From IMG/VR virus record IMGVR_UViG_3300031566_000003: DNA of 64,000 nucleotides, one strand, 5' to 3'. The notes under the pieces were generated by a model. That model was not told the DNA's origin. It ran no database searches and saw nothing but the letters and a program-made list of their open reading frames with translations. This document shows positions 1,271 to 48,825 of the stretch, piece after piece (position 1 is the first letter of the stretch; each line of letters opens with the position of its first letter). This DNA is from a virus. A program made the translations under genes and the position numbers.

Positions 1271-1307
1271 GAGGGGGAGCCATTTTTAGGCATCCCCTCT
1301 TTTTTTT
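1271..1307 (+). terminator. intrinsic terminator after the radical SAM gene
   Basis: GAGGGG (1271-1276) pairs with CCCCTC (1294-1299), followed by T8. Confidence 0.75.
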
Positions 1308-1511
1308 CATCTCCGAATTTTCTCTGAAATTTTCATAGCTTAATATGCTTTTAATGTATTAAACAAAGTTTAATTTGCTTAAAATGCTTTATCTGAAATT
1401 TTTCATCATGGAATTAGAAGAGAGTCTCCTAACCCACTTTTACACAAAAAAATTTTGTGCATATATGTAAACAATTCACTTTGTATTTGTTAAAAGTTAG
1501 TTACTAGTTAG

Positions 1512-1558
1512 TTATACCACATTGTAATACAAATTAGTAATACTACAATGTGGTATAA
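1512..1558. repeat. perfect 15-bp inverted repeat TTATACCACATTGTA / TACAATGTGGTATAA with a 17-nt spacer
   Basis: Arms at 1512-1526 and 1544-1558. The right arm is 13/15 identical to the direct copy at 3072-3086. Confidence 0.9.
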
Positions 1559-1711
1559 GTTAGTATTAGTATTTAATGCTATTTGCAAAACAATAAAGCA
1601 TGTTGTATTGTTTAGTTAGTATTATAAGCGCTTGCCATTGTGTTGTAGGTACTGCGCTTGCTTTAGGTGTTATATTTGCTTTATTATACATAGTATGTTA
1701 GCCCCTTGTAA

Positions 1712-1837
1712 TTAAATTTTGTATACGCGCTTTTGCGTATAGTTAGCATAACGTAAACTGTTATAAGTAACCACTGGTTGTTGTTTAGGCATTAACAAAG
1801 TAACAAGCGCAACAAAAAATTTTTTTAAGCTTACCAT
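1712..1837 (-). CDS. hypothetical small hydrophobic protein (41 aa from the ATG at 1837)
   Basis: MVSLKKFFVALVTLLMP...; AAGGGG SD spaced as in the paralog A/B leaders; own promoter at 1929-1957. Confidence 0.4.
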   Translation of the reverse strand: MVSLKKFFVALVTLLMPKQQPVVTYNSLRYANYTQKRVYKI

Positions 1838-1928
1838 TTTAAAACCCCTTGTTTTTATGTTAGCATTAAAACCCATACTATACATACACTGCAATTGCTA
1901 TGCCAAAAATTTTTGTTTTAAGCGCTTT

Positions 1929-1957
1929 ATACTATAGGCACTGCGCTTGCTAAACAA
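1929..1957 (-). promoter_or_regulatory. sigma70-like promoter TTGTTT-17-TAGTAT
   Basis: -35 at 1952-1957 and -10 at 1929-1934 (minus strand), 17-nt spacer. Confidence 0.5.
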
Positions 1958-2070
1958 GCGCTTAAAGGCATCTAATAGCGCCATAGCAAGCTTCTAACTA
2001 TATACCCTATACAAAGCAAGGGCAAAAGCAAAAGCGCTTGTTTTATGTGTGTTGTAATTTATACATACTA

Positions 2071-2108
2071 TGTGCAAAAATGGGCATCTTGTGTGCAAAA
2101 ATGGGCAA
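2071..2108. repeat. direct repeat TGTGCAAAAATGGGCA x2 (22-nt period)
   Basis: Copies at 2071-2086 and 2093-2108. Confidence 0.9.
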
Positions 2109-2135
2109 TAGTGTATAAAATCGGGCTTATGTGTA

Positions 2136-2179
2136 TAAAAAATAAGGTACCATGTTTAATATGCTTTACATGGTACCTT
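2136..2179 (-). terminator. intrinsic terminator downstream of paralog A
   Basis: AAGGTACCATG / CATGGTACCTT 11-bp stem (2169-2179 with 2144-2154), followed on the minus strand by ATTTTTT. Confidence 0.8.
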
Positions 2180-2193
2180 GTTTTATTGTTTGC

Positions 2194-2808
2194 CTATACA
2201 GTAGGCACTTGCACAGTAGGTACTTGCACAGTAGGTACTTGCACAGTAGGCACTGCGCTTGCTTTGTTACTAATACCTAAAACCTTATTGCATACCTTAA
2301 GCACAGTGGGCAATGCACTTGCTTTAAATGCCACAAAGCAATAGGTTTTAAATGGGTATACAACAACATCGTTTACACCGCTAAACAGTGCTTGTGCTTG
2401 TGTGCAAAATAAACCCTGCGCAGTATTGTTAAACGTTATTTTATTTTGCCCTGCAAATACACCGTGATACATTATAACGCCCTTAAAGCTTGCACTGTGC
2501 GCACTGGTTAGGCATAGGCCAAACGTTTGCCTATGCGCTTGTGTATACCCAAAATGCGCGTATTTAGGCAAGCTTGCACTGTTAAGCGCAGTAAACAAGG
2601 TTTGCAGTGTTGGCGTTAACAGGTCTAAAGCGCTTATATTAACATTGTGCGCTTTGTTTACTGCCAATTGTGCTACTTTACCATTTAAAGTAATTGGCGC
2701 GTTAAATGGGTTAACTTTGTTAGCGTATACATGCACTTGCGCAATATTATTGCCTTGCACAGTGCTTGCCCTTGCCCTTATTTTTTTTGGTACTATTGCT
2801 TTACCCAT
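2194..2808 (-). CDS. abundant-protein candidate, paralog A (204 aa), function unknown
   Basis: About 70% identical to 3411-3971 by hand alignment over a roughly 157-aa core. Consensus promoter, long conserved leader and strong terminator. The C-terminus is (PTVQV)n, encoded by a 15-bp tandem repeat. Confidence 0.85.
   Translation of the reverse strand: MGKAIVPKKIRARASTVQGNNIAQVHVYANKVNPFNAPITLNGKVAQLAVNKAHNVNISALDLLTPTLQTLFTALNSASLPKYAHFGYTQAHRQTFGLCLTSAHSASFKGVIMYHGVFAGQNKITFNNTAQGLFCTQAQALFSGVNDVVVYPFKTYCFVAFKASALPTVLKVCNKVLGISNKASAVPTVQVPTVQVPTVQVPTV
2198..2254. repeat. 15-bp tandem repeat ACAGTAGGYACTTGC, about 3.8 copies
   Basis: Units at 2198, 2213, 2228 and 2243. Encodes the PTVQV repeats at the 3' end of paralog A. 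Confidence 0.9.
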
Positions 2809-2969
2809 AATTAAAACCCCTTTATTAAATTGTTAGCTGCGCTTTACAGGTTATTAAGTAGTTACAAGTTTTAGTTTTTAGTTTAGGTGTAAACATGTAT
2901 ATAATGTAATGCAATTGTAATGCCAAAAAAAGCATATAAAACATATTTAATGTATTAAGCATAAAAAAC

Positions 2970-2998
2970 ATTATAAGCTTTTAAAAAAGCAATTGCAA
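2970..2998 (-). promoter_or_regulatory. consensus sigma70-like promoter TTGCAA-17-TATAAT for paralog A
   Basis: -35 at 2993-2998 and -10 at 2970-2975, with A-tracts upstream. Implies a 5' leader of about 155 nt. Confidence 0.7.
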
Positions 2999-3054
2999 GC
3001 AAAAAAAGCAAAAAATAAAATTTAAAAGCTTATTTCTTGTTTTTTTGCCTTATA

Positions 3055-3086
3055 CTACATAGTGGTATGTTACAAAGTGGTATACG
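3055..3086. repeat. two tandem GTGGTAT-containing 16-mers (CTACATAGTGGTATGT, TACAAAGTGGTATACG)
   Basis: Same motif as the 1544-1559 arm. Marks the right edge of the GCGC-rich cassette. Confidence 0.8.
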
Positions 3087-3148
3087 ATCTTTTCCCTCGC
3101 GTCCCGAGAGTAAGGAGCCTTTTTGGTCAGTTAATATGGGAGTCGAGA

Positions 3149-3168
3149 AGATCAAAGATCTTTGATCT
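3149..3168. repeat. perfect 20-bp palindrome AGATCAAAGATCTTTGATCT (three GATC sites, two overlapping GATCTTTGATC iterons)
   Basis: Read directly; the sequence is its own reverse complement. Confidence 0.95.
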
Positions 3169-3223
3169 ACCTAATTCTGTATGATTCTAAAAAAGATTCA
3201 TAGTGAAGATCTAAGACTTAATC

Positions 3224-3289
3224 TCTTTTCTGCGAATGAATGATAAGAAAAGAAATATTGGTCGGTCTATACCGGAGTCGAGAGATGAT
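3224..3289. repeat. 66-nt intergenic element, copy 1
   Basis: 49/66 identical without gaps to 4232-4297. Both end in CGAGAGATGAT. Confidence 0.8.
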
Positions 3290-3297
3290 CAAAGATC
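3287..3297. repeat. iteron GATCAAAGATC
   Basis: Same 11-mer (either orientation) at 3150-3160, 3158-3168, 4529-4539 and 4928-4938. Confidence 0.9.
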
Positions 3298-3354
3298 TTA
3301 AATCCCAGAAGAGAAACTTTCTTTCTATATGGGTATATGGATATAGGGGGGGGG

Positions 3355-3397
3355 ATAAAAAGAAGCACCATGCGGTGAATCTTGCACAGTGCTTTTC
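3355..3397 (-). terminator. intrinsic terminator downstream of paralog B
   Basis: On the minus strand, AAGCACUGUGC pairs with GCAUGGUGCUU (11 bp including G-U pairs), 10-nt loop, then CTTTTTA. Confidence 0.7.
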
Positions 3398-3410
3398 TTA
3401 GGAGGAACTG

Positions 3411-9226: not shown

Positions 9227-9430
9227 TTATGGCCTTACTCCTATTAGTTGAAACACAAAGAAATCATCATCCATCGCATCACGGTTAAGGTATGCTTCAT
9301 CAATTACAACTCGGTGAGTACTTGGATCACGATCCTGAAACCATCCAGGGTCAGGGTGCTTAAGTAAAAGTTCTTTCAATTGTTCATAAGACTGATTATG
9401 AATATTAATCTCTACCATTACCTTTGCCAT
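9227..9430 (-). CDS. hypothetical protein (67 aa)
   Basis: TAATG junction with the upstream gene. Confidence 0.55.
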   Translation of the reverse strand: MAKVMVEINIHNQSYEQLKELLLKHPDPGWFQDRDPSTHRVVIDEAYLNRDAMDDDFFVFQLIGVRP

Positions 9431-9726
9431 TACTTTCCTCCTTCTTTGTGATATTTACCACTTTGTACTGATTGGATTAGAGCCGTAAAAACTACTTGGT
9501 GATCCTCAAGAGAATTAATTTTCACATAAGTTATTATATAATCCTCTTCGTGGCAAATTTCAATATCTGGCTTCAATTTCCTAATATCTGCTATAATAGT
9601 CGCGACTTCAGATTCATCAAACCCATTTTCATCGGCTGGATAATATTCATCCGGAATCTCCACCTCTTCGGCTCCTACCTCAAAAACTTCCTTTATCTCT
9701 TCCCATGATTTAAGTATCTCTGCCAT
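9430..9726 (-). CDS. hypothetical acidic protein (98 aa)
   Basis: Packed co-directional ORF. Confidence 0.6.
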   Translation of the reverse strand: MAEILKSWEEIKEVFEVGAEEVEIPDEYYPADENGFDESEVATIIADIRKLKPDIEICHEEDYIITYVKINSLEDHQVVFTALIQSVQSGKYHKEGGK

Positions 9727-13936: not shown

Positions 13937-14431
13937 CTATAAACTACGCCTTTTAGGATCTATAAACCAATACCTTCCTAATGCTGTCAATATTCCTTCT
14001 TCAGTAAGAGCTACAGGAGAACCTAACATATTTCTTACATCGTATAGTCCATACTGATTCAGCTTCCATCCTCTTTTCTTTGCATCTGACCGACAAAAGA
14101 TATTAAACATCTTAGAACCTGTAAAGTGCAGCATCATTGGCTCAATCTCTTCTGGCCGAGAGAACATGAAATCTATCTGCATTCCGCTTTTAGTTTGCAT
14201 GTAAATGAGCGCCGGTCCACTGGAAAGAACTTCACTGGCGACCTTAGTTACGCTATTCACAAACTCATCTATGCTACTCACAACCACCACCACATCTAAA
14301 TCATGCACCTCATCACATTTTCTGCGATAACTGCCACATACCTCCATTCTGGAATATCCTTTCAATTCAGGCAGAACTTCTTTCCAGATTGCTTCTGCCT
14401 CTGCTCGGGGCCATAGTTTTTCTTTTGGCAT
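13937..14431 (-). CDS. minimal family-X DNA polymerase (Pol beta-like palm plus thumb only, 164 aa)
   Basis: GSYRRKCDEVHDLDVVVV (GS[FY]RR...hDhD), QIDFMF (third Asp) and HFTGSKMFN...AKKRGWKLNQYGL (cf. Pol beta YFTGS..FN...A...G..lNeY). AAGGAGGAG SD before 14431. Confidence 0.75.
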   Translation of the reverse strand: MPKEKLWPRAEAEAIWKEVLPELKGYSRMEVCGSYRRKCDEVHDLDVVVVVSSIDEFVNSVTKVASEVLSSGPALIYMQTKSGMQIDFMFSRPEEIEPMMLHFTGSKMFNIFCRSDAKKRGWKLNQYGLYDVRNMLGSPVALTEEGILTALGRYWFIDPKRRSL

Positions 14432-14441
14432 CTTCTCCTCC

Positions 14442-14624
14442 TTAAGCCTTGAAATAGACAAGCGGACGACTGCTTATTACGACTCCGCTTTCATAATCGT
14501 ATAGCTCTATTTCTCCAGTCTTAAAGTTCATCCTTATTTCTGTCGTATCCAGATTATCTTGTTGACCTTTTGCCCATTCTGCAAGCTCAACTATGATAGA
14601 GGTATAAATTGTTATGTCTGGCAT
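14442..14624 (-). CDS. hypothetical protein (60 aa)
   Basis: Packed ORF downstream of the promoter at 14663-14691. Confidence 0.55.
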   Translation of the reverse strand: MPDITIYTSIIVELAEWAKGQQDNLDTTEIRMNFKTGEIELYDYESGVVISSRPLVYFKA

Positions 14625-15436: not shown

Positions 15437-15454
15437 TTTACTCCTCCCTGGCCT

Positions 15455-16740
15455 TACATATCTTTGCTCTACTTCGCTTTGCCTCCGCTCCGCTTTACTC
15501 TGAGAAACAATGCCTATGCTCTACGGAACCCGACTCTGCATCACATTGCCAAAGCTTTACGAACCCGAACTATGCCAACGCAAAGCTTTACAAGACTGGA
15601 CTATGCCGATGCCGTTCCAAGCCGTACCAAACTAAACCAAGCCGTTGCGATGTCGTACTGAGCCAAACTCTGCCCATGCTTGACTATGCTTGTCTAAACT
15701 CTGCCTCTGCAAGACTATACCTGTCCACACTTTACTCCGCCATCGCCTATACCGTTGCGATACTATACTGAGCTAAACTCTGCCATAGCTCTGCTACTCC
15801 AAACCCTGCGGGTCCAAACTCCGCCATCACCCAGCATCACCTTGTCTCACCCTTCAGTACTTCACGTCGCCTTTGCCCTGCCGAATCTTACACGACTTTG
15901 CCATAGCGCTACTGAACCTAGTTTCACAGTGCTATGCCTTTGCTGCACTTTGCTTTGTGGAACTACGCCTCCGCCATACCAAACATTTCATTACTTAGGT
16001 AGACTTTGCCACCGCCTTGCCTTTCGGTGCGCTATCTCGCAACGCCTTCGCGTTACAGTGTCTAACCAGACTTTACCCGACTATGCCGATGCTATACACC
16101 GTAAAACCGGACTCTGCCGGTGCTTAACGACTCCGCACCTAACAACGCGCCACCGAAGCTGTACTACACCACTCCATTCCATGCCTCTGCTGATCTATAC
16201 CACGCTTTTCTATACCCATGCTTCTCGCCGCCATACTCTGCCTTTGCCCTATTGAACCTTACCCGACTTTGCCAACGCATTGCATGTCTATACTGAGCGC
16301 GACGACACCATCGCATCGCACCATTTCGCGTAACATGACTTAGCCAACGCATTGCTGAAATATACTAATCCTAACGTCGCCAACGCTTTGCCCAATTCCA
16401 CCTCACTTCGCCACCGCCATTCAGTGCACCTCCTCGCAATGCCTTTGCACCTCATAACATAACTTATCGCCACCGTTGCGATTCTATGCCTTTCTTTACT
16501 CTACTGCGCCCTTGCAATTCACTGTAGGACTTTACCTCGCCTTGCCTCCGCTCTGCTCTACCGCACGACTCACCGCCAACGCAATACTAGTCTATGCAAG
16601 ACTATGCCGGTGCGTGATCAAGCGTCACCCCGCTGTGCCTTTGCCTCGCTCCGCTGTGCCTATGCAAAGAACTGCCCTGCTTGACTTTGCCTATGCTTGA
16701 CTTAGCAATTCTTAGCGCTACCCGACATTGCCACTGCGAT
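15455..16740. repeat. ORF-free GC-rich, C>G-skewed island of degenerate 15/16-nt units (RACTNTGCCNNNGC) with 31-nt and 111-nt higher-order copies
   Basis: No convincing ORF on either strand. Hand counts for the rows starting at 15661, 16081 and 16381 give C=19/21/27 and G=9/12/7 per 60 nt. TGCC occurs roughly three dozen times. The 111-nt duplication is 15641 versus 15752. Confidence 0.85.
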
Positions 16741-44149: not shown

Positions 44150-44861
44150 CTTTATTAGTTCCTCCTACTTTTATAACAATCCCAAAACAATAATCATTGT
44201 AAACATTATACGATTCTACAACTTCGAGAGTATATAGTCTAATAGTTTTTGGAAATATATTTTCAAGAAACCAATGCAAGCTGAAGTTTTCAACTTTATG
44301 ACTCTCATTTCGTGGTCGCTGTTTTGATTCACAAGAAGCTCTGTAGCGCTGTTCATCAGGAAGGAATAAAATAAGAAATCCTCCTGGCTTTATCACTCTA
44401 AGCCATTCTATAAGAACAAAAGGCATTTCTTCCGGTGAGAAATCTTCAAAAAGATGTGAAGAAAAAACAAAATCAAACACGCCATCTCTAAACCAATACA
44501 AGTCCCTTGCATCTCCCCTTAAATTCTGAGGGGAATTTCCGACCTTCGTATAGGGCTTTGGAAGATCCAGAGTTATAGCCCAAGGAACAACGACATCTCC
44601 GCCGAACCCTAAATCCAGACCCATTCCCTCACAATACTTAGCTATACGATTACGACATTTATCTGTTTCTGATCCCATGCTTACCTCCAAAAAATGGTCT
44701 GGGATTATTTCATCTGTATCGTGATCAACAAGGACTCCACAACTAAGACATCTTCTTCTTGTGCCTTTAGCTGCTTCCATTTCACGCTCCATTTCTTCAC
44801 CATCTGCCATACCGCCATCTATATCAGTTCCGCAATTTGGACAAAACCAATCCCAAGGCAT
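44100..44861 (-). CDS. SAM-dependent methyltransferase with an N-terminal Zn ribbon
   Basis: CPNCG...CLSCG; GLDLGFGG (motif I), FDFVFSSHLFEDF and VIKPGGFLILF. Confidence 0.65.
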   Translation of the reverse strand: MPWDWFCPNCGTDIDGGMADGEEMEREMEAAKGTRRRCLSCGVLVDHDTDEIIPDHFLEVSMGSETDKCRNRIAKYCEGMGLDLGFGGDVVVPWAITLDLPKPYTKVGNSPQNLRGDARDLYWFRDGVFDFVFSSHLFEDFSPEEMPFVLIEWLRVIKPGGFLILFLPDEQRYRASCESKQRPRNESHKVENFSLHWFLENIFPKTIRLYTLEVVESYNVYNDYCFGIVIKVGGTNKDEATKHTSLGDNSCCH

Positions 44862-44878
44862 TTCTTTTTCCTTTCTTC

Positions 44879-45118
44879 TTATGCAGTAATAAATTCTCCA
44901 TCTTCTGTAATGCCATAATAACCAGGAATTTCAGGCAATCCATAAACCAATGCAAGCTGATGACATGTTTTCACAGCATCAACAGTAGCCGCATCTCTTC
45001 TAATTCCTTCACCAACTGAAAATACAATCATACACTTTCCTGGTATCCAGCCTCTTCTTGATAGATTTATCAATTTTTCCAAATCCTCTTTTGATGCCTT
45101 TACTCCTGTTCTCTTCAT
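44879..45118 (-). CDS. hypothetical protein (79 aa from the ATG at 45118)
   Basis: AAGGAG SD. Confidence 0.55.
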   Translation of the reverse strand: MKRTGVKASKEDLEKLINLSRRGWIPGKCMIVFSVGEGIRRDAATVDAVKTCHQLALVYGLPEIPGYYGITEDGEFITA

Positions 45119-45129
45119 TCTGGTTCTCC

Positions 45130-45537
45130 TTATAACCATATACATTTTTCTTTATGAGGATATTCGTTATGAGGACAAGGAGATTCACTTCTGTTTTTTA
45201 GATCACTTACCCACGATATAGGAGAACTACGTTTGAGCAATGTAGCTGACACTCCTATATCACACCTCTGATATTTGCCGAGATCAATCTCAAAATGTGT
45301 TGACTTCGTTACTCCTATTAATTCCACCTTAAATCCGTTTAATGTTCTAACATAAACATGATAAACGACTTCATCAAGCAATGATTCTGGTAAAAGTTCG
45401 CATGAAGAATCATAAATGATAGGTTCCCATTTTAAGACAACAATGAATTTATCGCTGTTAATATATGAATAGATAGTCCAACAAGATAAAGCTAAAATTA
45501 TAGACAGTATGATCATACGTGCCGCCCACTTATTCAT
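45130..45537 (-). CDS. membrane-anchored protein (N-terminal TM helix)
   Basis: MNKWAARMIILSIILALSCW; AAGGGAG SD before 45537. Confidence 0.6.
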   Translation of the reverse strand: MNKWAARMIILSIILALSCWTIYSYINSDKFIVVLKWEPIIYDSSCELLPESLLDEVVYHVYVRTLNGFKVELIGVTKSTHFEIDLGKYQRCDIGVSATLLKRSSPISWVSDLKNRSESPCPHNEYPHKEKCIWL

Positions 45538-45548
45538 TTTTTCTCCCT

Positions 45549-45761
45549 TCAATACCAAATCCATTCAAACTTAACCCAATTCACATTAGATGGATTTTGT
45601 AAGCTCATAGCATAATTTAGAGCAGCGCCAGTTTTATCAATGTAGGTTGGTGGATTATCTAGATCTTCTTGAGTGAAATCCCACACTCTTGTATACCGAC
45701 TCATTGGTTCTCCAACTAGAATCCCTGCAACAACCACTACACTGCATTTCGTAGGACCCAT
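45549..45761 (-). CDS. hypothetical protein (70 aa)
   Basis: Packed ORF. Confidence 0.5.
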   Translation of the reverse strand: MGPTKCSVVVVAGILVGEPMSRYTRVWDFTQEDLDNPPTYIDKTGAALNYAMSLQNPSNVNWVKFEWIWY

Positions 45762-45771
45762 CTTATCTCCT

Positions 45772-45954
45772 CTATTTATTTGTTACAATTATACTATCTA
45801 CACACTTACACGATAACACATTAGAACTATAACGTCTATTGGTTGAGCCATGACACTTTGTACAGAATTCAGCTCCACACCGATCACACTTATGATCATC
45901 AACTTCACCAACCCTACAAATAGGACAACTTCCTTCACATCCACATTCGCTCAT
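45772..45954 (-). CDS. hypothetical Zn-ribbon protein (60 aa from the ATG at 45954)
   Basis: CGCEGSCPIC...CDRCG...CTKCH. Confidence 0.55.
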   Translation of the reverse strand: MSECGCEGSCPICRVGEVDDHKCDRCGAEFCTKCHGSTNRRYSSNVLSCKCVDSIIVTNK

Positions 45955-45981
45955 AGCTTGCTCTCCACGAACCACTATCCT

Positions 45982-46110
45982 TCATTTCGATGCTAGATAG
46001 GCAAATAAGGGTGCCCATATCAGAAAGATAGCAGCGAACCAAAAAAGAAGATTCCTGTGTTGTTTCTTTTTAAGTGTTCGCATCTTTAAAAAAGGTCTGT
46101 TATTTAGCAT
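45982..46110 (-). CDS. small membrane protein (42 aa, below the ORF-track cutoff)
   Basis: Hand-translated MLNNRPFLKMRTLKKKQHRNLLFWFAAIFLIWAPLFAYLASK; GGAGGAG SD. Confidence 0.5.
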   Translation of the reverse strand: MLNNRPFLKMRTLKKKQHRNLLFWFAAIFLIWAPLFAYLASK

Positions 46111-46132
46111 AAGCCCTCTCCTCCGCATTCAC

Positions 46133-46540
46133 TCATGACTTGCTCTCCACAAAAGAACTGACTGCCAGACTTACTATAACTTTACATATCCCAAATTCCA
46201 TACAGTCTGGATACGGTTCTTCAGGATGCCTTTTAGCATTCATAGTCCGAAAAATTAATGTATCTCTTAGCCCAGAAAATCTCTCACACTCAAATCCTTT
46301 TGCGCTTACCGTTAGAAATATGCAGCACTTCTCACCCTTTCCCGCTCCACACTCCTCAGGATTAGGAATTGGAACTATTTGTTCTATTTCTTCTATTTCA
46401 TCTTTATCTGTGCCGCAACCATAAGATGTTCCATCATATACTAAGAGCTCTTCGCTATCACCACATACACCAAAAGAATCTGAAACCACATGAGCTATAG
46501 CTCCTGTCAACTTATTCCTTACCCTTGTGCCAACTTTCAT
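46133..46540 (-). CDS. hypothetical protein (135 aa)
   Basis: Packed ORF. Confidence 0.65.
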   Translation of the reverse strand: MKVGTRVRNKLTGAIAHVVSDSFGVCGDSEELLVYDGTSYGCGTDKDEIEEIEQIVPIPNPEECGAGKGEKCCIFLTVSAKGFECERFSGLRDTLIFRTMNAKRHPEEPYPDCMEFGICKVIVSLAVSSFVESKS

Positions 46541-46773
46541 GTCTCTATCTCCGCATTAAGCACAGGTCGCCCCTGAATAGAAAGAATAACTGAATCAGTA
46601 GCAAGACTTACTTTCTCAGTATTTATCAGCATTTTCACAAATTCCTTTGCTTGTTGCTCAGCCTCTTCTTTATCGCTTGCAGTTTTTTTTCCACCACCTT
46701 CAATTCCATCTCCAGAAACAGTCCATCCCCATCTTCCATTTTGCTCATCAATTAAAAGAACATTTATTATCAT
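46537..46773 (-). CDS. hypothetical protein (78 aa)
   Basis: ATGA overlap with the next gene. Confidence 0.55.
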   Translation of the reverse strand: MIINVLLIDEQNGRWGWTVSGDGIEGGGKKTASDKEEAEQQAKEFVKMLINTEKVSLATDSVILSIQGRPVLNAEIET

Positions 46774-46805
46774 TTTTACTTCCTTTAGATTTTTGTACTT
46801 CTTCT

Positions 46806-46964
46806 CTTATTTTAATGCTAAACAATCACCGTTTGTATTATATAGATCTCCATCAAATTCGCAATCGTGATGACCTATGCAAGTATGACAGCTACACCAT
46901 GAATCATTATCTAAACCAAACGGATGATAAGATTGTGCTTGCCATCTTAGCCATTTCCAAACCA
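46806..46964 (-). CDS. hypothetical Cys/His-rich protein (52 aa, below the ORF-track cutoff)
   Basis: Hand-translated MVWKWLRWQAQSYHPFGLDNDSWCSCHTCIGHHDCEFDG...; AAGGGG SD. Confidence 0.45.
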
Positions 46965-46982
46965 TTTTTCCCCTTTTAATTA

Positions 46983-47684
46983 GCAGAAGAGATAAGCAGC
47001 GTTCACATTGAGGTCTACGATCCAGCTACGGCCGGAGCTTTACTTACCCTTCTGCATGTACTGGCAGCGACAGATTCCGCCACTCATTACTGAGCCAGGA
47101 TTCGAACCCGGACGAGACACTTTCTCCTATATTGGATTTTGCAGCGGGGTTACTTTCCTGAGATCACGCAAGACGCAGACACCCTCTTAAAGTCCCCGTC
47201 GGAGTGGATCACTTCTCATATACCCTCAGTCATTGCGTCTACCACGAGGCAAGCCCTTCCGTGCGATGAAGGGATCAGTACATCTTTTCGCCTTAGCAAA
47301 CTGTGCTCTTGCTTGCCTCATTCCGCCATTGCCAGCACGTCCATTCCACATTCTATTTTTCAAGTATTGGAAACTAACGGTATCTTGATAATTTTTAAAA
47401 CATAAAGCAACTTCTGACATAATTGTGCTCAATTCTTCAATAGCTTTGCTAGTATTATGGATACTTAAACCAAGAGACTGCATCGCTATATCCCTTTGAA
47501 GTTTTTGCTCAATAGTTAATTCTGTTTTCATAGTTTAATTTGTGCTGGCAGCCTCTACTCTGAGAGAGAGAAGAGATGGAAAGACGCGCTTGCTATGCTG
47601 CTTCGTTCCGTGGCACAGAGGAAGCAATCCTCCAACTACCTTGAACCATCTTTACTACTGCCCATCTCCTCCTTTACTGCCAGC
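46983..47684 (-). ncRNA. large GC-rich structured-RNA candidate containing a tRNA-type T-arm (class unknown)
   Basis: T-arm CCGGG-TTCGAAT-CCTGG at 47095-47111. Complementary pairs: 47677-84 with 47544-51; 47662-69 with 47572-79 (nested inside the first); 47311-19 with 47246-54 (9 bp); 47234-40 with 47171-77; 47049-55 with 46983-89. GC-rich flanks surround an AT-rich core. No SD before the embedded ORF. Confidence 0.5.
47226..47531 (-). CDS. questionable ORF (101 aa) embedded in the structured-RNA locus
   Basis: The N-terminal 60 aa look protein-like, but there is no SD and the 3' third runs through GC-rich paired segments (R/G/A-rich translation). Confidence 0.25.
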   Translation of the reverse strand: MKTELTIEQKLQRDIAMQSLGLSIHNTSKAIEELSTIMSEVALCFKNYQDTVSFQYLKNRMWNGRAGNGGMRQARAQFAKAKRCTDPFIARKGLPRGRRND

Positions 47685-47691
47685 GTGTATT

Positions 47692-48825
47692 TTATTTCGC
47701 TTTTTTCTTAGCCGAATGCGTTTCAAGTTTCTTTTTTAAAGAAGAACTAACTGCTTCTTCTTCTGCATCAAGATCTTCATCTTCGCTGAGCTCTTTATCT
47801 ATTTCGTTGAAGAACTCTTCGTCTTCGTCTCCTTCCTCTTTTTCCTCTTCGCTTTCTCCTTCTTTTTCTCCTGCGCTTTCTTCTTCTTCACCATCTTCTT
47901 CTCCTCCTTCCTCTTCTAGATCGTCAGTTTTTTCTTCCTCATTAAGATCTTCATCCTCATCAAGATCTTCATCAGGTTCAAGCTCAACTCCCTTCATTAC
48001 CGCCAAAATTTCTTCGCTCGTTAATTTGGGATAAATAATACTCCAATCAAGAGCGTTTTCGCTCATATATTTTCTAACAACCTTGGGGAGAATAAAAGTC
48101 GTTAACGAAAAGCCTACATCAGAATAGGTAGTTTTTATCTTTTCTCCAGATCTAGAAAATTCAAAGTTATGACCTTCCGTAATACTGAAAGGATTATGCC
48201 CAATCTCCTTATGTATTTTATTAGCCATTGAAATCAGAGGATCTCTTACGGTCGGGCCAACAGTAAGATAGCCAAGTCCTGATTGACAAACTTTCCCCCA
48301 AGATGTCTTAGCTACACATTTTTCACAAACATCATGGCCCTCATCCTCTTCGCGAAAGATATAATTTCCAAAACACTCTCTTGGCTTCGGAAATTTCTTT
48401 TCATCATCTTCAAAAAACTTGTGCAAGGGAGTCAAGTTAATTCCCTCTAGGAGACAACGCTGTTTTCGGTACCTCAACTTGAGTCTTGCCTTAGCCTTTG
48501 CCCCCCCACGTTTTCTATCCTCCTCTAGAGAAAGGCACTGCGGACATAGATCAAAAGGCTCAAAGCCTTTAAAATTCTCTTCAACATGATCTCTAATACA
48601 CCTTATTTGTGCCTTTCGGTCTGGACCACAATTGTAATGAATCCCCATCTCCTCCCAAGGAAACTCACTTTCTGTCGCAGTCTCCTTAAATCTAAAATAA
48701 TTTTTCCCATCCACGACAACAAGTCTTCTGGCAAAACGACTTGAACTCTTCTTCTTTTGTCGCTTCCTTTGAGCCGCGATCTCCTTAGTCTTTTCCCTAA
48801 CTTTTTCTCCTGAAAACTTACCCAT
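47692..48825 (-). CDS. hypothetical protein with Cys clusters and a roughly 90-aa acidic C-terminal tail (SSB-like architecture, speculative)
   Basis: Long ORF. CPQC and CEKC pairs. The D/E-rich tail resembles the tails of phage ssDNA-binding proteins, but I recognise no diagnostic motif. Confidence 0.7.
   Translation of the reverse strand: MGKFSGEKVREKTKEIAAQRKRQKKKSSSRFARRLVVVDGKNYFRFKETATESEFPWEEMGIHYNCGPDRKAQIRCIRDHVEENFKGFEPFDLCPQCLSLEEDRKRGGAKAKARLKLRYRKQRCLLEGINLTPLHKFFEDDEKKFPKPRECFGNYIFREEDEGHDVCEKCVAKTSWGKVCQSGLGYLTVGPTVRDPLISMANKIHKEIGHNPFSITEGHNFEFSRSGEKIKTTYSDVGFSLTTFILPKVVRKYMSENALDWSIIYPKLTSEEILAVMKGVELEPDEDLDEDEDLNEEEKTDDLEEEGGEEDGEEEESAGEKEGESEEEKEEGDEDEEFFNEIDKELSEDEDLDAEEEAVSSSLKKKLETHSAKKKAK

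Follow-up and report, generated by a model that had tools for sequence, protein, structure and literature searches.

A GC-rich phage locus with an isolated tRNA T-arm as a possible composite of a hairpin, an orphan gene and a tRNA-gene relic

tRNA-like signals and mimics, such as the plant mitochondrial t-elements, mascRNA and the viral 3' tRNA-like structures, possess a contiguous acceptor/T-arm stack. Phages may also carry decayed tRNA genes. The related phage locus L016 has a "minihelix" (9402-9441) composed of an acceptor stem and a T-arm, without the D and anticodon arms; as far as compared, its T-arm and 3' acceptor strand are those of bona fide tRNA-Thr(GGT) genes. A third kind of element, the promoter-early stem-loops (PeSLs), flanks orphan ORFs in the hyperplastic regions of T4-type phages; the PeSLs are small composite motifs of a terminator and an early promoter, which are repeated through the genome (PMC2839356, PMC4122927).

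Here we analyzed the locus 46983-47690 of the IMG/VR virus record IMGVR_UViG_3300031566_000003, within a window of 64,000 nt, which is the whole stretch of DNA under analysis. A reading made from the sequence only had proposed that the locus encodes a single structured RNA of ~700 nt or a degenerate tRNA-like element, on the combined evidence of nested complementary segments, GC-rich blocks and a perfect T-arm. Our analysis suggests that the locus may well be a hairpin, an orphan gene for a small protein and a GC-rich spacer with a tRNA-gene relic, which lie side by side (Table 1). We propose that it represents the first cassette of a phage-specific insertion of ~3.5 kb, which separates uvsX from a conserved 377-aa gene. 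On the minus strand, the sense strand of the operon, this cassette would comprise three parts: the imperfect hairpin H1, immediately past the stop codon of the upstream gene; a small orphan protein gene of 85-101 aa, whose Arg/Gly/Ala-rich tail would explain part of what had been taken for GC-rich RNA; and the non-coding spacer IGR2, harboring the isolated T-arm, a small GNRA-capped hairpin and the hairpin H3 in front of the next gene.

Table 1. Coordinates of the features in and around the locus
Feature	Position	Strand	Description
Upstream conserved gene	47692-48825	minus	377 aa; Cys-rich core, long acidic tail
Lineage-specific insertion	44150-47691	minus	~3.5 kb between the 377-aa gene and uvsX; the locus comes first
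H1	47544-47684	minus	Imperfect rod-like hairpin of 141 nt
Orphan ORF	47226-47531	minus	306 nt, 101 aa (85 aa if the start is Met17)
Local hairpin in the C-terminal coding part of the ORF	47244-47321	minus	z -2.47; contains the pair 47311-19/47246-54
IGR2	46966-47225	minus	Non-coding spacer of 260 nt, GC about 0.50-0.52, between the ORF and the next small gene
Canonical tRNA T-arm, CCGGG-TTCGAAT-CCTGG	47095-47111	minus	D, anticodon and acceptor arms absent around it
GNRA-capped hairpin, CUCA-GUAA-UGAG	47083-47094	minus	4 bp, GUAA tetraloop; read from the sequence
H3	46983-47055	minus	Extended hairpin of 73 nt, ending 17 nt before the ATG of the next gene

The overall arrangement resembles the PeSL cassettes, in that an orphan small ORF in a hypervariable insertion between core genes is bracketed by stem-loops (H1 and H3). 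However, H1 and H3, of 141 and 73 nt, are unlike each other, carry no promoter or terminator motif and are not repeated in the window, where H1 and the locus sequence were each found only once. The locus resembles the L016 minihelix in several respects: its T-arm has the same sequence as T-arms of functional phage tRNAs, neither element has a D or anticodon arm, both sit in an intergenic spacer of the replication module, and tRNA finders overlook them. They differ in what has been kept: the minihelix retains both acceptor strands (7/7 pairs) and an identifiable donor isotype, whereas the window has preserved no more than the T-arm and perhaps the 3' strand, the best pairing with an adjacent 5' acceptor strand reaches 4/7 (linkers of 0-12 nt) and no donor was found. 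Compared to t-elements, mascRNA and viral tRNA-like structures, the locus also places a T-arm, with a possible acceptor-like helix, inside a longer transcript; by contrast, the test for a contiguous acceptor/T-arm stack was negative, and the long-range alternative is not significant.

The conserved gene upstream of the locus has relatives in 25 loci (48-61% identity). Its product, perhaps a gp32-like ssDNA-binding protein, has no Pfam, PHROG or PDB-sequence match. In 10 of 12 related loci this gene abuts an ORF of uvsX size (337-358 aa; identified by the RecA_N Pfam domain in L001 and by identical downstream sequence in L024) at a gap of -1 to 20 nt, so that the locus falls in a lineage-specific insertion. 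The rest of the insertion consists of a methyltransferase and small unannotated ORFs, the latter without Pfam matches. In none of the 25 loci with relatives of the upstream gene was there a sequence like that of the locus, a GC-rich spacer or a match in structure, and no homologue of the locus was found by blastn against phages and plasmids, nhmmer, exact k-mers, protein synteny or covariance models. Moreover, exact 20-24-mers of the T-arm with its acceptor, of H1, of IGR2 and of H3 are absent from the IMG/VR and GTDB genomes. No difference within the locus was seen among three independent contigs of the same phage. Samples containing this phage are those of the assemblies ERZ27256827 and ERZ27256810 and of the runs SRR8554512 and SRR8554643.

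The central ORF probably represents a genuine gene. Scored with the codon usage of the same phage, it reaches a log-odds of 0.235 per codon (0.22 in the N-terminal part and 0.26 in the GC-rich C-terminal part), compared to 0.275 +/- 0.066 for real genes and at most 0.12 for 51 spurious open frames, the null being frames that overlap real genes. The flanks of the ORF have negative coding scores in all six frames. As codon usage in its GC-rich third is coding-like, we argue that this third is translated; the GC content of the tail at the three codon positions is 0.56, 0.62 and 0.41, respectively. The N-terminal two thirds of the product are predicted to be helical, followed by a tail rich in Arg, Gly and Ala. 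Three points stand against reading this ORF as a gene: it lacks an SD sequence at Met1, as had been noted before; no homologue of its product was found in 5.8e9 or 1.84e9 proteins; and the AF2 model, all helical, is of low confidence (pLDDT 55). The sequence AAGGGA is present upstream of Met17.

The base composition of the locus is as the sequence-only reading described it, with GC-rich segments (0.50-0.54 over 47000-47349 and 0.48-0.51 over 47550-47699) flanking a core of 0.28-0.35 (47350-47549). Against a window mean of 0.375 with an sd of 0.053 (150-nt windows), these blocks are true outliers at about +2.5 to 3 sd, and other such blocks occur elsewhere in the window. A functionless spacer in a phage of 37% GC should drift toward AT, so that a block of 50-54% GC points to either recent acquisition or selection for structure. 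This is a point against the cassette with a tRNA relic.

Most of the complementary segments listed earlier are also present, namely 47677-84/47544-51 (8 bp), 47662-71/47570-79 (10 nt at 90%, previously given as 47662-69/47572-79), 47311-19/47246-54 (9 bp) and 47049-55/46983-89 (7 bp, read from the sequence and appearing in the computed fold). Complementarity between 47234-40 and 47171-77 exists too, but it is actually AGACGC/GCGTCT at 47172-77/47236-41, with 6 bp and an offset of 2 nt. Nevertheless, these pairs, whose nesting had been put forward as evidence of structure, are at the level of chance: 46983-47690 contains 17, 6 and 2 perfect complementary 7-, 8- and 9-mers, compared to 15.0, 3.7 and 1.0 in dinucleotide shuffles (P 0.37, 0.21 and 0.26, respectively).

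Further analysis spoke against a single RNA of ~700 nt of the GOLLD/ROOL, tmRNA or intron type. The entire locus folds no better than its genomic context (z of -0.9 to +1.5 for its windows in a genome-wide MFE scan), and its middle is gene-like by codon usage. The Rfam search proposed by the sequence-only reading, which had counted an empty result against itself, gave no relevant family at gathering thresholds over the whole window; even at E<=10 there was no match to GOLLD, ROOL, HEARO, OLE or another large RNA over 46700-47900 (1.2 kb), and none to any family, the tRNA family RF00005 included, over the 281 nt of the IGR2 search. GOLLD and ROOL RNAs share with the locus the phage setting, a proposed size of several hundred nucleotides and a tRNA-like sequence nearby; however, their covariance models have no match here at E<=10, and the locus has a coding-like middle third and no overall excess of structure.

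ARAGORN, another of the checks that had been proposed, called no tRNA or tmRNA gene by default, with or without introns of up to 3 kb. Lowered thresholds and the permuted-tmRNA mode yielded calls at noise level only (the permuted-tmRNA noise at ps70), and in the tRNA model obtained at low threshold 5/7 acceptor pairs form, the D stem is nearly absent and the anticodon stem is poor. Extending the genome to 72.8 kb revealed no tRNA gene either. A tmRNA, likewise rejected by ARAGORN and Rfam, would resemble the locus in its T-arm, an ORF without SD and a GC-rich structured flank; by contrast, the locus lacks a G.U acceptor stem, an encoded CCA, a tag-like ORF end and a pseudoknot ring, and its GC-rich block continues 3' of the T-arm. 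A group I or group II intron was rejected as well, with no Rfam match at E<=10, flanking genes that are complete and separate, and no tRNA exons that could be assembled.

Folding better than that of shuffled sequences is confined to H1 (47684-47544) and H3 (47055-46983). H1, with an MFE of -55.9 kcal/mol (z -2.8 to -3.3 against shuffles), starts 7 nt past the upstream stop codon and ends 12 nt short of the ATG of the ORF; inside it, an SD-like AAGGAGG is paired to a CU-rich strand. Taken in register, H1 would rank 45th among 5108 windows of a genome-context scan, and its covariance model found no other match. The local hairpin in the ORF lies entirely inside coding-scoring sequence. H3 has a z of -3.15 on the minus strand against -1.48 on the plus strand, and thus its G.U pairs favour the transcribed strand. 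Both H1 and H3 lack a U-tract and are unlike the ordinary compact terminators of the same phage. Since no promoter or terminator motif was found in 46500-48000, the whole stretch would be co-transcribed with its neighbours, and H1 and H3, if active at all, might act as intercistronic mRNA structures; processing or stability elements would be our guess.

The T-arm itself is as perfect as the sequence-only reading held. It has the GTTCRANYC loop closed by a 5-bp stem, is identical to the T-arms of called phage tRNAs and is directly followed by CTCAGTA (47094-47088); the motif is unique within the window. Together with the two preceding bases it forms the 19-mer GTCCGGGTTCGAATCCTGG, identical to genuine phage tRNA T-arms of several isotypes and found in 24 IMG/VR contigs, where nearly all sites are inside recognisable tRNA genes. 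Against a phage-tRNA profile, the T-arm is the best match in the window, covering positions 48-66 only, with an E of 0.045, and the similarity to real tRNAs around it extends over at most 28 nt. The sequence GGTTCGAATCC with up to one mismatch is expected 0.78 times per window, and the exact 11-mer with three further stem pairs about 0.001 times per window by our estimate. The T-arm is therefore probably more than chance.

The surroundings of the T-arm are less tRNA-like. GACTGAG, which had been suggested to pair with CTCAGTA, is present at 47231-47225, but the two form only 6 bp plus a G.A mismatch; moreover, an equally good partner, TACTGAT, is found at 47280-47274. GACTGAG also overlaps the TGA stop of the ORF. 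The GNRA-capped hairpin, which is selected in both the MFE and the centroid folds, consumes CTCAGTA, the proposed 3' acceptor strand. A search of IMG/VR and of 185,579 species genomes gave no tRNA matching this strand, and hence no donor. The suggestion of a degenerate tRNA-like element stands in part: the T-arm equals genuine phage tRNA T-arms base for base, and relatives carry decayed or aberrant tRNAs, such as a tRNA (39.6 bits) with a 21-nt anticodon loop that adjoins the same conserved gene in L011, but no cloverleaf surrounds the motif. Altogether, the T-arm is probably the relic of a tRNA gene; most likely it would be the fossil of a phage tRNA gene whose 5' part was lost or overwritten, and the piece would have no function of its own.

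Alternatively, IGR2, possibly together with H1, might be a functional phage ncRNA of an undescribed kind, built around a tRNA-like T-loop module, which we consider unlikely. Such an RNA may be a tRNA mimic that recruits or diverts RNase P or Z, the CCA-adding enzyme, TruB or TrmA; it may also be a decoy against tRNA-targeting host defences or a t-element-like processing signal. This reading would account for a GC-rich non-coding spacer in an AT-rich genome, for a strict-consensus T-arm that is improbable by chance and adjoins a GNRA hairpin, and for the better folding of H3 on the transcribed strand, and a 6-bp closing helix (47230-25/47094-89) is possible. However, IGR2, which has negative coding scores in all six frames, folds as a whole no better than shuffles (z -0.28), and nor does the proposed 155-nt tRNA-like unit (z +0.42). 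The closing helix is not significant (anchored test, P 0.017 with Watson-Crick pairs only and 0.44 with G.U), has two equally good partners and a competing local hairpin, and RNase P cutting there would remove the stop codon of the ORF. In addition, no homologue is present in the collections searched and the locus is absent from all relatives. Overall, a novel tRNA-mimicking RNA ranges from unlikely to quite unlikely. Quite unlikely is also its most specific form, in which the spacer, perhaps with H1, would be the singleton of an undescribed phage RNA class, with a T-loop module and a GNRA hairpin inside a polycistronic mRNA that hijack tRNA-processing or -modifying enzymes or decoy tRNA-directed defences, and with selection for structure maintaining its high GC in a genome of 37% GC.

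It is likewise doubtful that the T-arm is coincidental and the GC blocks are recently captured foreign DNA or noise in composition, with neither tRNA ancestry nor RNA function. A relaxed T-arm pattern does occur about once per 60 kb in related phage DNA, the match to the sequence-only tRNA profile is marginal, the motif is not accompanied by any other tRNA-like sequence, and a 1-in-1000 event can surface if many windows are scanned. Against this stand the strict 11-nt consensus with its fully paired 5-bp stem, the position of the T-arm within the ~1% of the window that is both GC-rich and non-coding, the identity of the 19-mer to real phage tRNAs and the tRNA remnants carried by relatives.

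Very improbable is an interrupted tRNA gene, with a large anticodon-loop intron or in split form, in which the GC-rich sequence would be the intron. Phage tRNAs with the same T-arm do have introns of 189 or 245 nt (L050 and L039), and ARAGORN at ps60 proposes a tRNA-Thr(cgt) at about 47280-47087 with a 99-nt intron, the 5' exon being read as TACTGAT-CC-CTTC...GAAG from 47280. Yet the ps60 setting makes 11 calls in 1.2 kb, which is noise, whereas the default with introns of up to 3 kb gives nothing; the anticodon stem has 2-3 of 5 pairs, group I and II introns have no match at E<=10, and the candidate 5' exon falls within coding-like sequence. A tRNA 5' half at 47280 with long-range acceptor pairing was also rejected, as it is not significant once G.U pairs are allowed.

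tRNA-derived attP cores usually extend from near the anticodon loop through the T-arm. The tRNA similarity of the locus has this extent, and an attP-like core, copied from the 3' part of a host tRNA gene for integration into that gene, nevertheless has scarcely any probability: no integrase or recombinase domain was detected by Pfam in 42 ORFs of >=150 aa and the small neighbouring ORFs, no integrase is among the genes called out to 72.8 kb, the phage has its own replication and recombination genes, and none of 185,579 species genomes contains the 20-mer GGGTTCGAATCCTGGCTCAG. Hardly credible, too, is an element acting as DNA, such as a replication origin or a cluster of protein-binding sites with GC-rich flanks and an AT-rich unwinding core: it would fit the location among replication and recombination genes and the motif TGT(A/G)CTGGCAGC, found twice exactly and only in the locus, but the "AT-rich core" has ordinary genome composition and is coding-like, GC skew is unchanged at the locus, chance alone should produce repeats of such length in 850 nt, and relatives lack the locus. 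Repeats of the CTGGCAG type were rejected as sites or insertion scars, the 9-12-nt repeats being at chance expectation.

The locus is most likely a minor curiosity and not a new RNA class. It offers three cautions for the reading of phage genomes: a structured RNA should not be called from a perfect T-arm with GC-rich flanks alone, complementary 7-9-mers need a comparison with shuffles, and the codon usage of an embedded ORF should be checked before the ORF is dismissed. On the minority reading of a functional tRNA-mimicking module, which rests on one sequence, the locus would have moderate interest for the study of conflicts between phage and host over tRNAs. If instead it is a cassette with a hairpin, an orphan gene and a tRNA-gene relic, as we propose, it would be a further example of the accumulation of orphan genes and decaying tRNA fragments in the hypervariable regions of large phages.

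The source phage (~136 kb, 37.5% GC) carries in the window a DnaE-type polymerase, a thymidylate-synthase-like gene, a UvsX/RecA-like recombinase, an Mre11-type (Metallophos) phosphoesterase, an SMC/SbcC-type ATPase and a sigma factor. A 174-aa protein at 13937-14461 (-), with the palm and thumb domains of DNA polymerase beta, is assigned from its sequence as a minimal Pol X-type nucleotidyltransferase. The genes surrounding the locus (46983-47690) lie on the minus strand; the 377-aa gene upstream of it has no Pfam, PHROG or PDB-sequence match, and may encode an SSB. Its relatives share 48-61% identity, and 25 encoding loci were fetched. Among the 12 that reach far enough for synteny comparison, ten have the homologue followed immediately, at a distance of -1 to 20 nt, by an ORF of uvsX size (337-358 aa; RecA_N called in one, L001). 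In the fetched loci, no GC-rich spacer at the corresponding site, no ARAGORN-called tRNA and no locus-like sequence were found. This gene order, together with the lack of locus-like sequence, indicates that 44150-47691 is a lineage-specific insertion, of which the locus is the first cassette. The locus has no blastn match in phage and plasmid collections, and its exact 20-24-mers are absent from IMG/VR and 185,579 species genomes; it does not vary among three independent contigs from this phage.

Two GC-rich segments had been described around an AT-rich core, and this composition was borne out, with 0.50-0.54 GC at 47000-47349, 0.48-0.51 at 47550-47699 and 0.28-0.35 in between, compared to a window mean of 0.375 (sd 0.053, 150-nt windows). 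Most of the core lies within a 101-aa ORF (47226-47531), which is probably a real gene. A codon log-odds score, trained on 42 long genes from within the window, gives this ORF 0.235 per codon, with 0.22 for the AT-rich N-terminal part and 0.26 for the C-terminal third, which is GC-rich. The corresponding value for real genes is 0.275 +/- 0.066, and none of 51 spurious open frames of 70 codons or more exceeds 0.12. The GC content of its tail at codon positions 1-3 (0.56, 0.62 and 0.41) argues for a translated Arg/Gly/Ala-rich tail rather than a position-independent RNA structure. The flanks 47532-47691 and 46966-47225 have negative coding scores in all six frames. Several points count against the ORF. 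As noted from sequence alone, Met1 lacks an SD, though most genes in the phage have one; AAGGGA lies upstream of Met17. Searches of 5.8 billion clustered proteins, 1.84 billion representatives, Pfam and PHROG returned no homologue, and a single-sequence AlphaFold model is all-helical and weak (pLDDT 55). If the ORF is real, the proposed 700-nt RNA comes down to two spacers, of 160 and 260 nt, on either side of a gene.

Thermodynamics speaks against a single ~700-nt structured RNA: folding gives z -1.5 for the whole locus (731 nt), -1.95 for the 376-nt 3' block, -0.28 for the 271 non-coding nt holding the T-arm and +0.42 for a proposed 155-nt tRNA-like unit. In a window-wide scan of 150-nt windows on both strands, with MFE regressed on composition, the locus spans z -0.9 to +1.5. 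The complementary pairs listed by the sequence-only reading are present, except that one is offset by 2 nt and has only 6 bp. Such pairs are no commoner than chance: there are 17, 6 and 2 perfect complementary 7-, 8- and 9-mers, where dinucleotide shuffles yield 15.0, 3.7 and 1.0 (P = 0.37, 0.21 and 0.26), and direct repeats are also at chance level.

Two local hairpins, H1 and H3, stand out in folding, and H1 in register would rank 45th of 5108 windows in the MFE scan. Both lack a U-tract, and 46500-48000 contains neither promoter nor terminator motifs; other spacers of the phage contain compact canonical terminator hairpins. H1 also holds a 9-codon mini-ORF (MGSSKDGSR, 47664-47635 (-)), very close behind a strong SD-like AAGGAGG whose strand pairs with a CU-rich strand; it is probably incidental.

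Hairpins of the locus and its neighbouring reading frames
Feature	Coordinates	Strand	Remarks
377-aa gene	47692-48825	(-)	upstream of locus; Cys-rich core and acidic tail
H1	47684-47544	(-)	MFE -55.9 kcal/mol; z -2.8 to -3.3
H3	47055-46983	(-)	z -3.15 on minus strand vs -1.48 on plus strand
52-aa ORF	46807-46965	minus-strand reading	downstream neighbour of locus

Known RNA families do not account for the locus. Rfam 15 gave no match at gathering thresholds over the whole window and, at E<=10, none of relevance in 1.2 kb or in 281 nt, which rules out tRNA, tmRNA, GOLLD, ROOL, HEARO, OLE, RNase P, 6S and group I and II introns as modelled there; the suggested GOLLD/ROOL, tmRNA and self-splicing-intron identities thus fall away. 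ARAGORN called zero tRNA and zero tmRNA in the window and, at default stringency with introns up to 3 kb, still nothing; at lowered thresholds it made many calls across 1.2 kb, which are noise. Run over 467 kb, covariance models built for H1 and for the block from the T-arm to H3 gave only T-arm-driven matches in real tRNAs.

The T-arm itself, CCGGG-TTCGAAT-CCTGG at 47111-47095 (-) followed by CTCAGTA, is as first reported. The 19-mer GTCCGGGTTCGAATCCTGG containing it occurs in 24 IMG/VR contigs. Eighteen sites lie inside tRNAs called by default ARAGORN (Arg, Gln, Ile, Gly and amber suppressors), and in four further contigs (L050 and three that share identical flanks) it serves as 3' exon in tRNAs whose introns measure 245 or 189 nt. 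Its presence in real phage tRNAs marks the window motif as genuine tRNA T-arm sequence. Of the idea of a degenerate or split tRNA, the T-arm stands, but neither a cloverleaf nor an ARAGORN tRNA was found. Against 225 phage tRNAs, similarity extends over at most 28 nt (26/28 identical, tRNA positions 38-66), and the match to a phage-tRNA profile covers only positions 48-66 (E 0.045), though it is still the best in the window. The intron-bearing tRNAs are a Ser-CGA tRNA with a 245-nt anticodon-loop intron in L039, L044 and L045 (e.g. L039 7261-7578) and an amber-suppressor (CTA) tRNA with a 189-nt anticodon-loop intron at L050 12367-12628. Amber-suppressor tRNAs also occur in contigs L030-L032, L038, L042 and L051, which suggests stop-codon-recoding phages.

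Two fetched loci exemplify tRNA decay within the clade. In L016 (9402-9441, in a 102-nt spacer), GTTCCCA-TGAT-GCAAGTTCGATTCTTGC-TGGGAGC stacks an acceptor of 7 bp on a T-arm, with D and anticodon arms missing; both the T-arm and the 3' acceptor strand match exactly those of a bona fide tRNA-Thr(GGT) in IMG/VR contigs L055 and L056. We read this minihelix, undetected by ARAGORN and Rfam, as an internally deleted tRNA-Thr. In L011 (3394-3476), a tRNA directly upstream of the 377-aa gene homologue scores 39.6 bits in Rfam (gathering score 29), and was missed by default ARAGORN; its 21-nt anticodon loop reflects a 10-nt insertion.

That the locus is a novel tRNA-mimicking RNA is a minority possibility. 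An anchored test that required, upstream of the T-arm, an acceptor strand and then a D-arm gave P = 0.017 when restricted to Watson-Crick pairing but 0.44 with G.U allowed, and the best adjacent pairing at the T-arm, 4/7, falls short of a minihelix. GACTGAG, the proposed partner of CTCAGTA, is indeed present upstream, but at 47231-47225, overlapping the TGA stop of the ORF. TACTGAT (47280) and a local UGAG (47086-47083) are the other candidates; energy-minimised folds select the latter, which gives a GUAA-capped hairpin of 4 bp. Equally improbable is a coincidental T-arm within captured GC-rich DNA. Allowing up to one mismatch, the 11-mer of the T-arm should turn up 0.78 times per window, and the exact T-arm roughly 0.001 times; as many windows may have been screened, a chance origin is unlikely without being negligible. 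The non-coding 260-nt spacer has ~51% GC against 37% for the phage, which fits both recent capture and selection for structure. An interrupted tRNA has the intron-bearing tRNAs of other phages in its favour and the empty intron-mode search against it, and is very improbable; an attP core or a DNA-level element is slightly more so.

Other unusual blocks lie elsewhere in the window. The most GC-rich non-coding one (15450-16720, ~1.3 kb, 55-59% GC, 9-27 stop codons per frame in all frames) is strongly skewed to C over G on the plus strand (C 0.31-0.39, G 0.13-0.20) and holds many degenerate direct repeats with periodicities of 31 and 5 nt. It shows neither inverted repeats nor excess folding, has no match in Rfam or phage databases, and is unrelated in sequence to the locus. 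The window opens, approximately at the contig start, with 5.8 perfect tandem copies of a 22-nt unit (1-127), and a 2-kb zone (1300-3400) dense in direct, tandem and inverted repeats has the most stable local folds in the window (z down to -5.8 at 2126-2275); together they may form a terminal, origin or regulatory region.

For the locus, we favour, at roughly even confidence, an orphan small gene located in a phage-specific insertion, preceded by a long hairpin and followed by a GC-rich spacer that would hold a tRNA-gene relic and a second hairpin. The hairpins, if functional, would act at the level of the operon mRNA, in its processing or stability.
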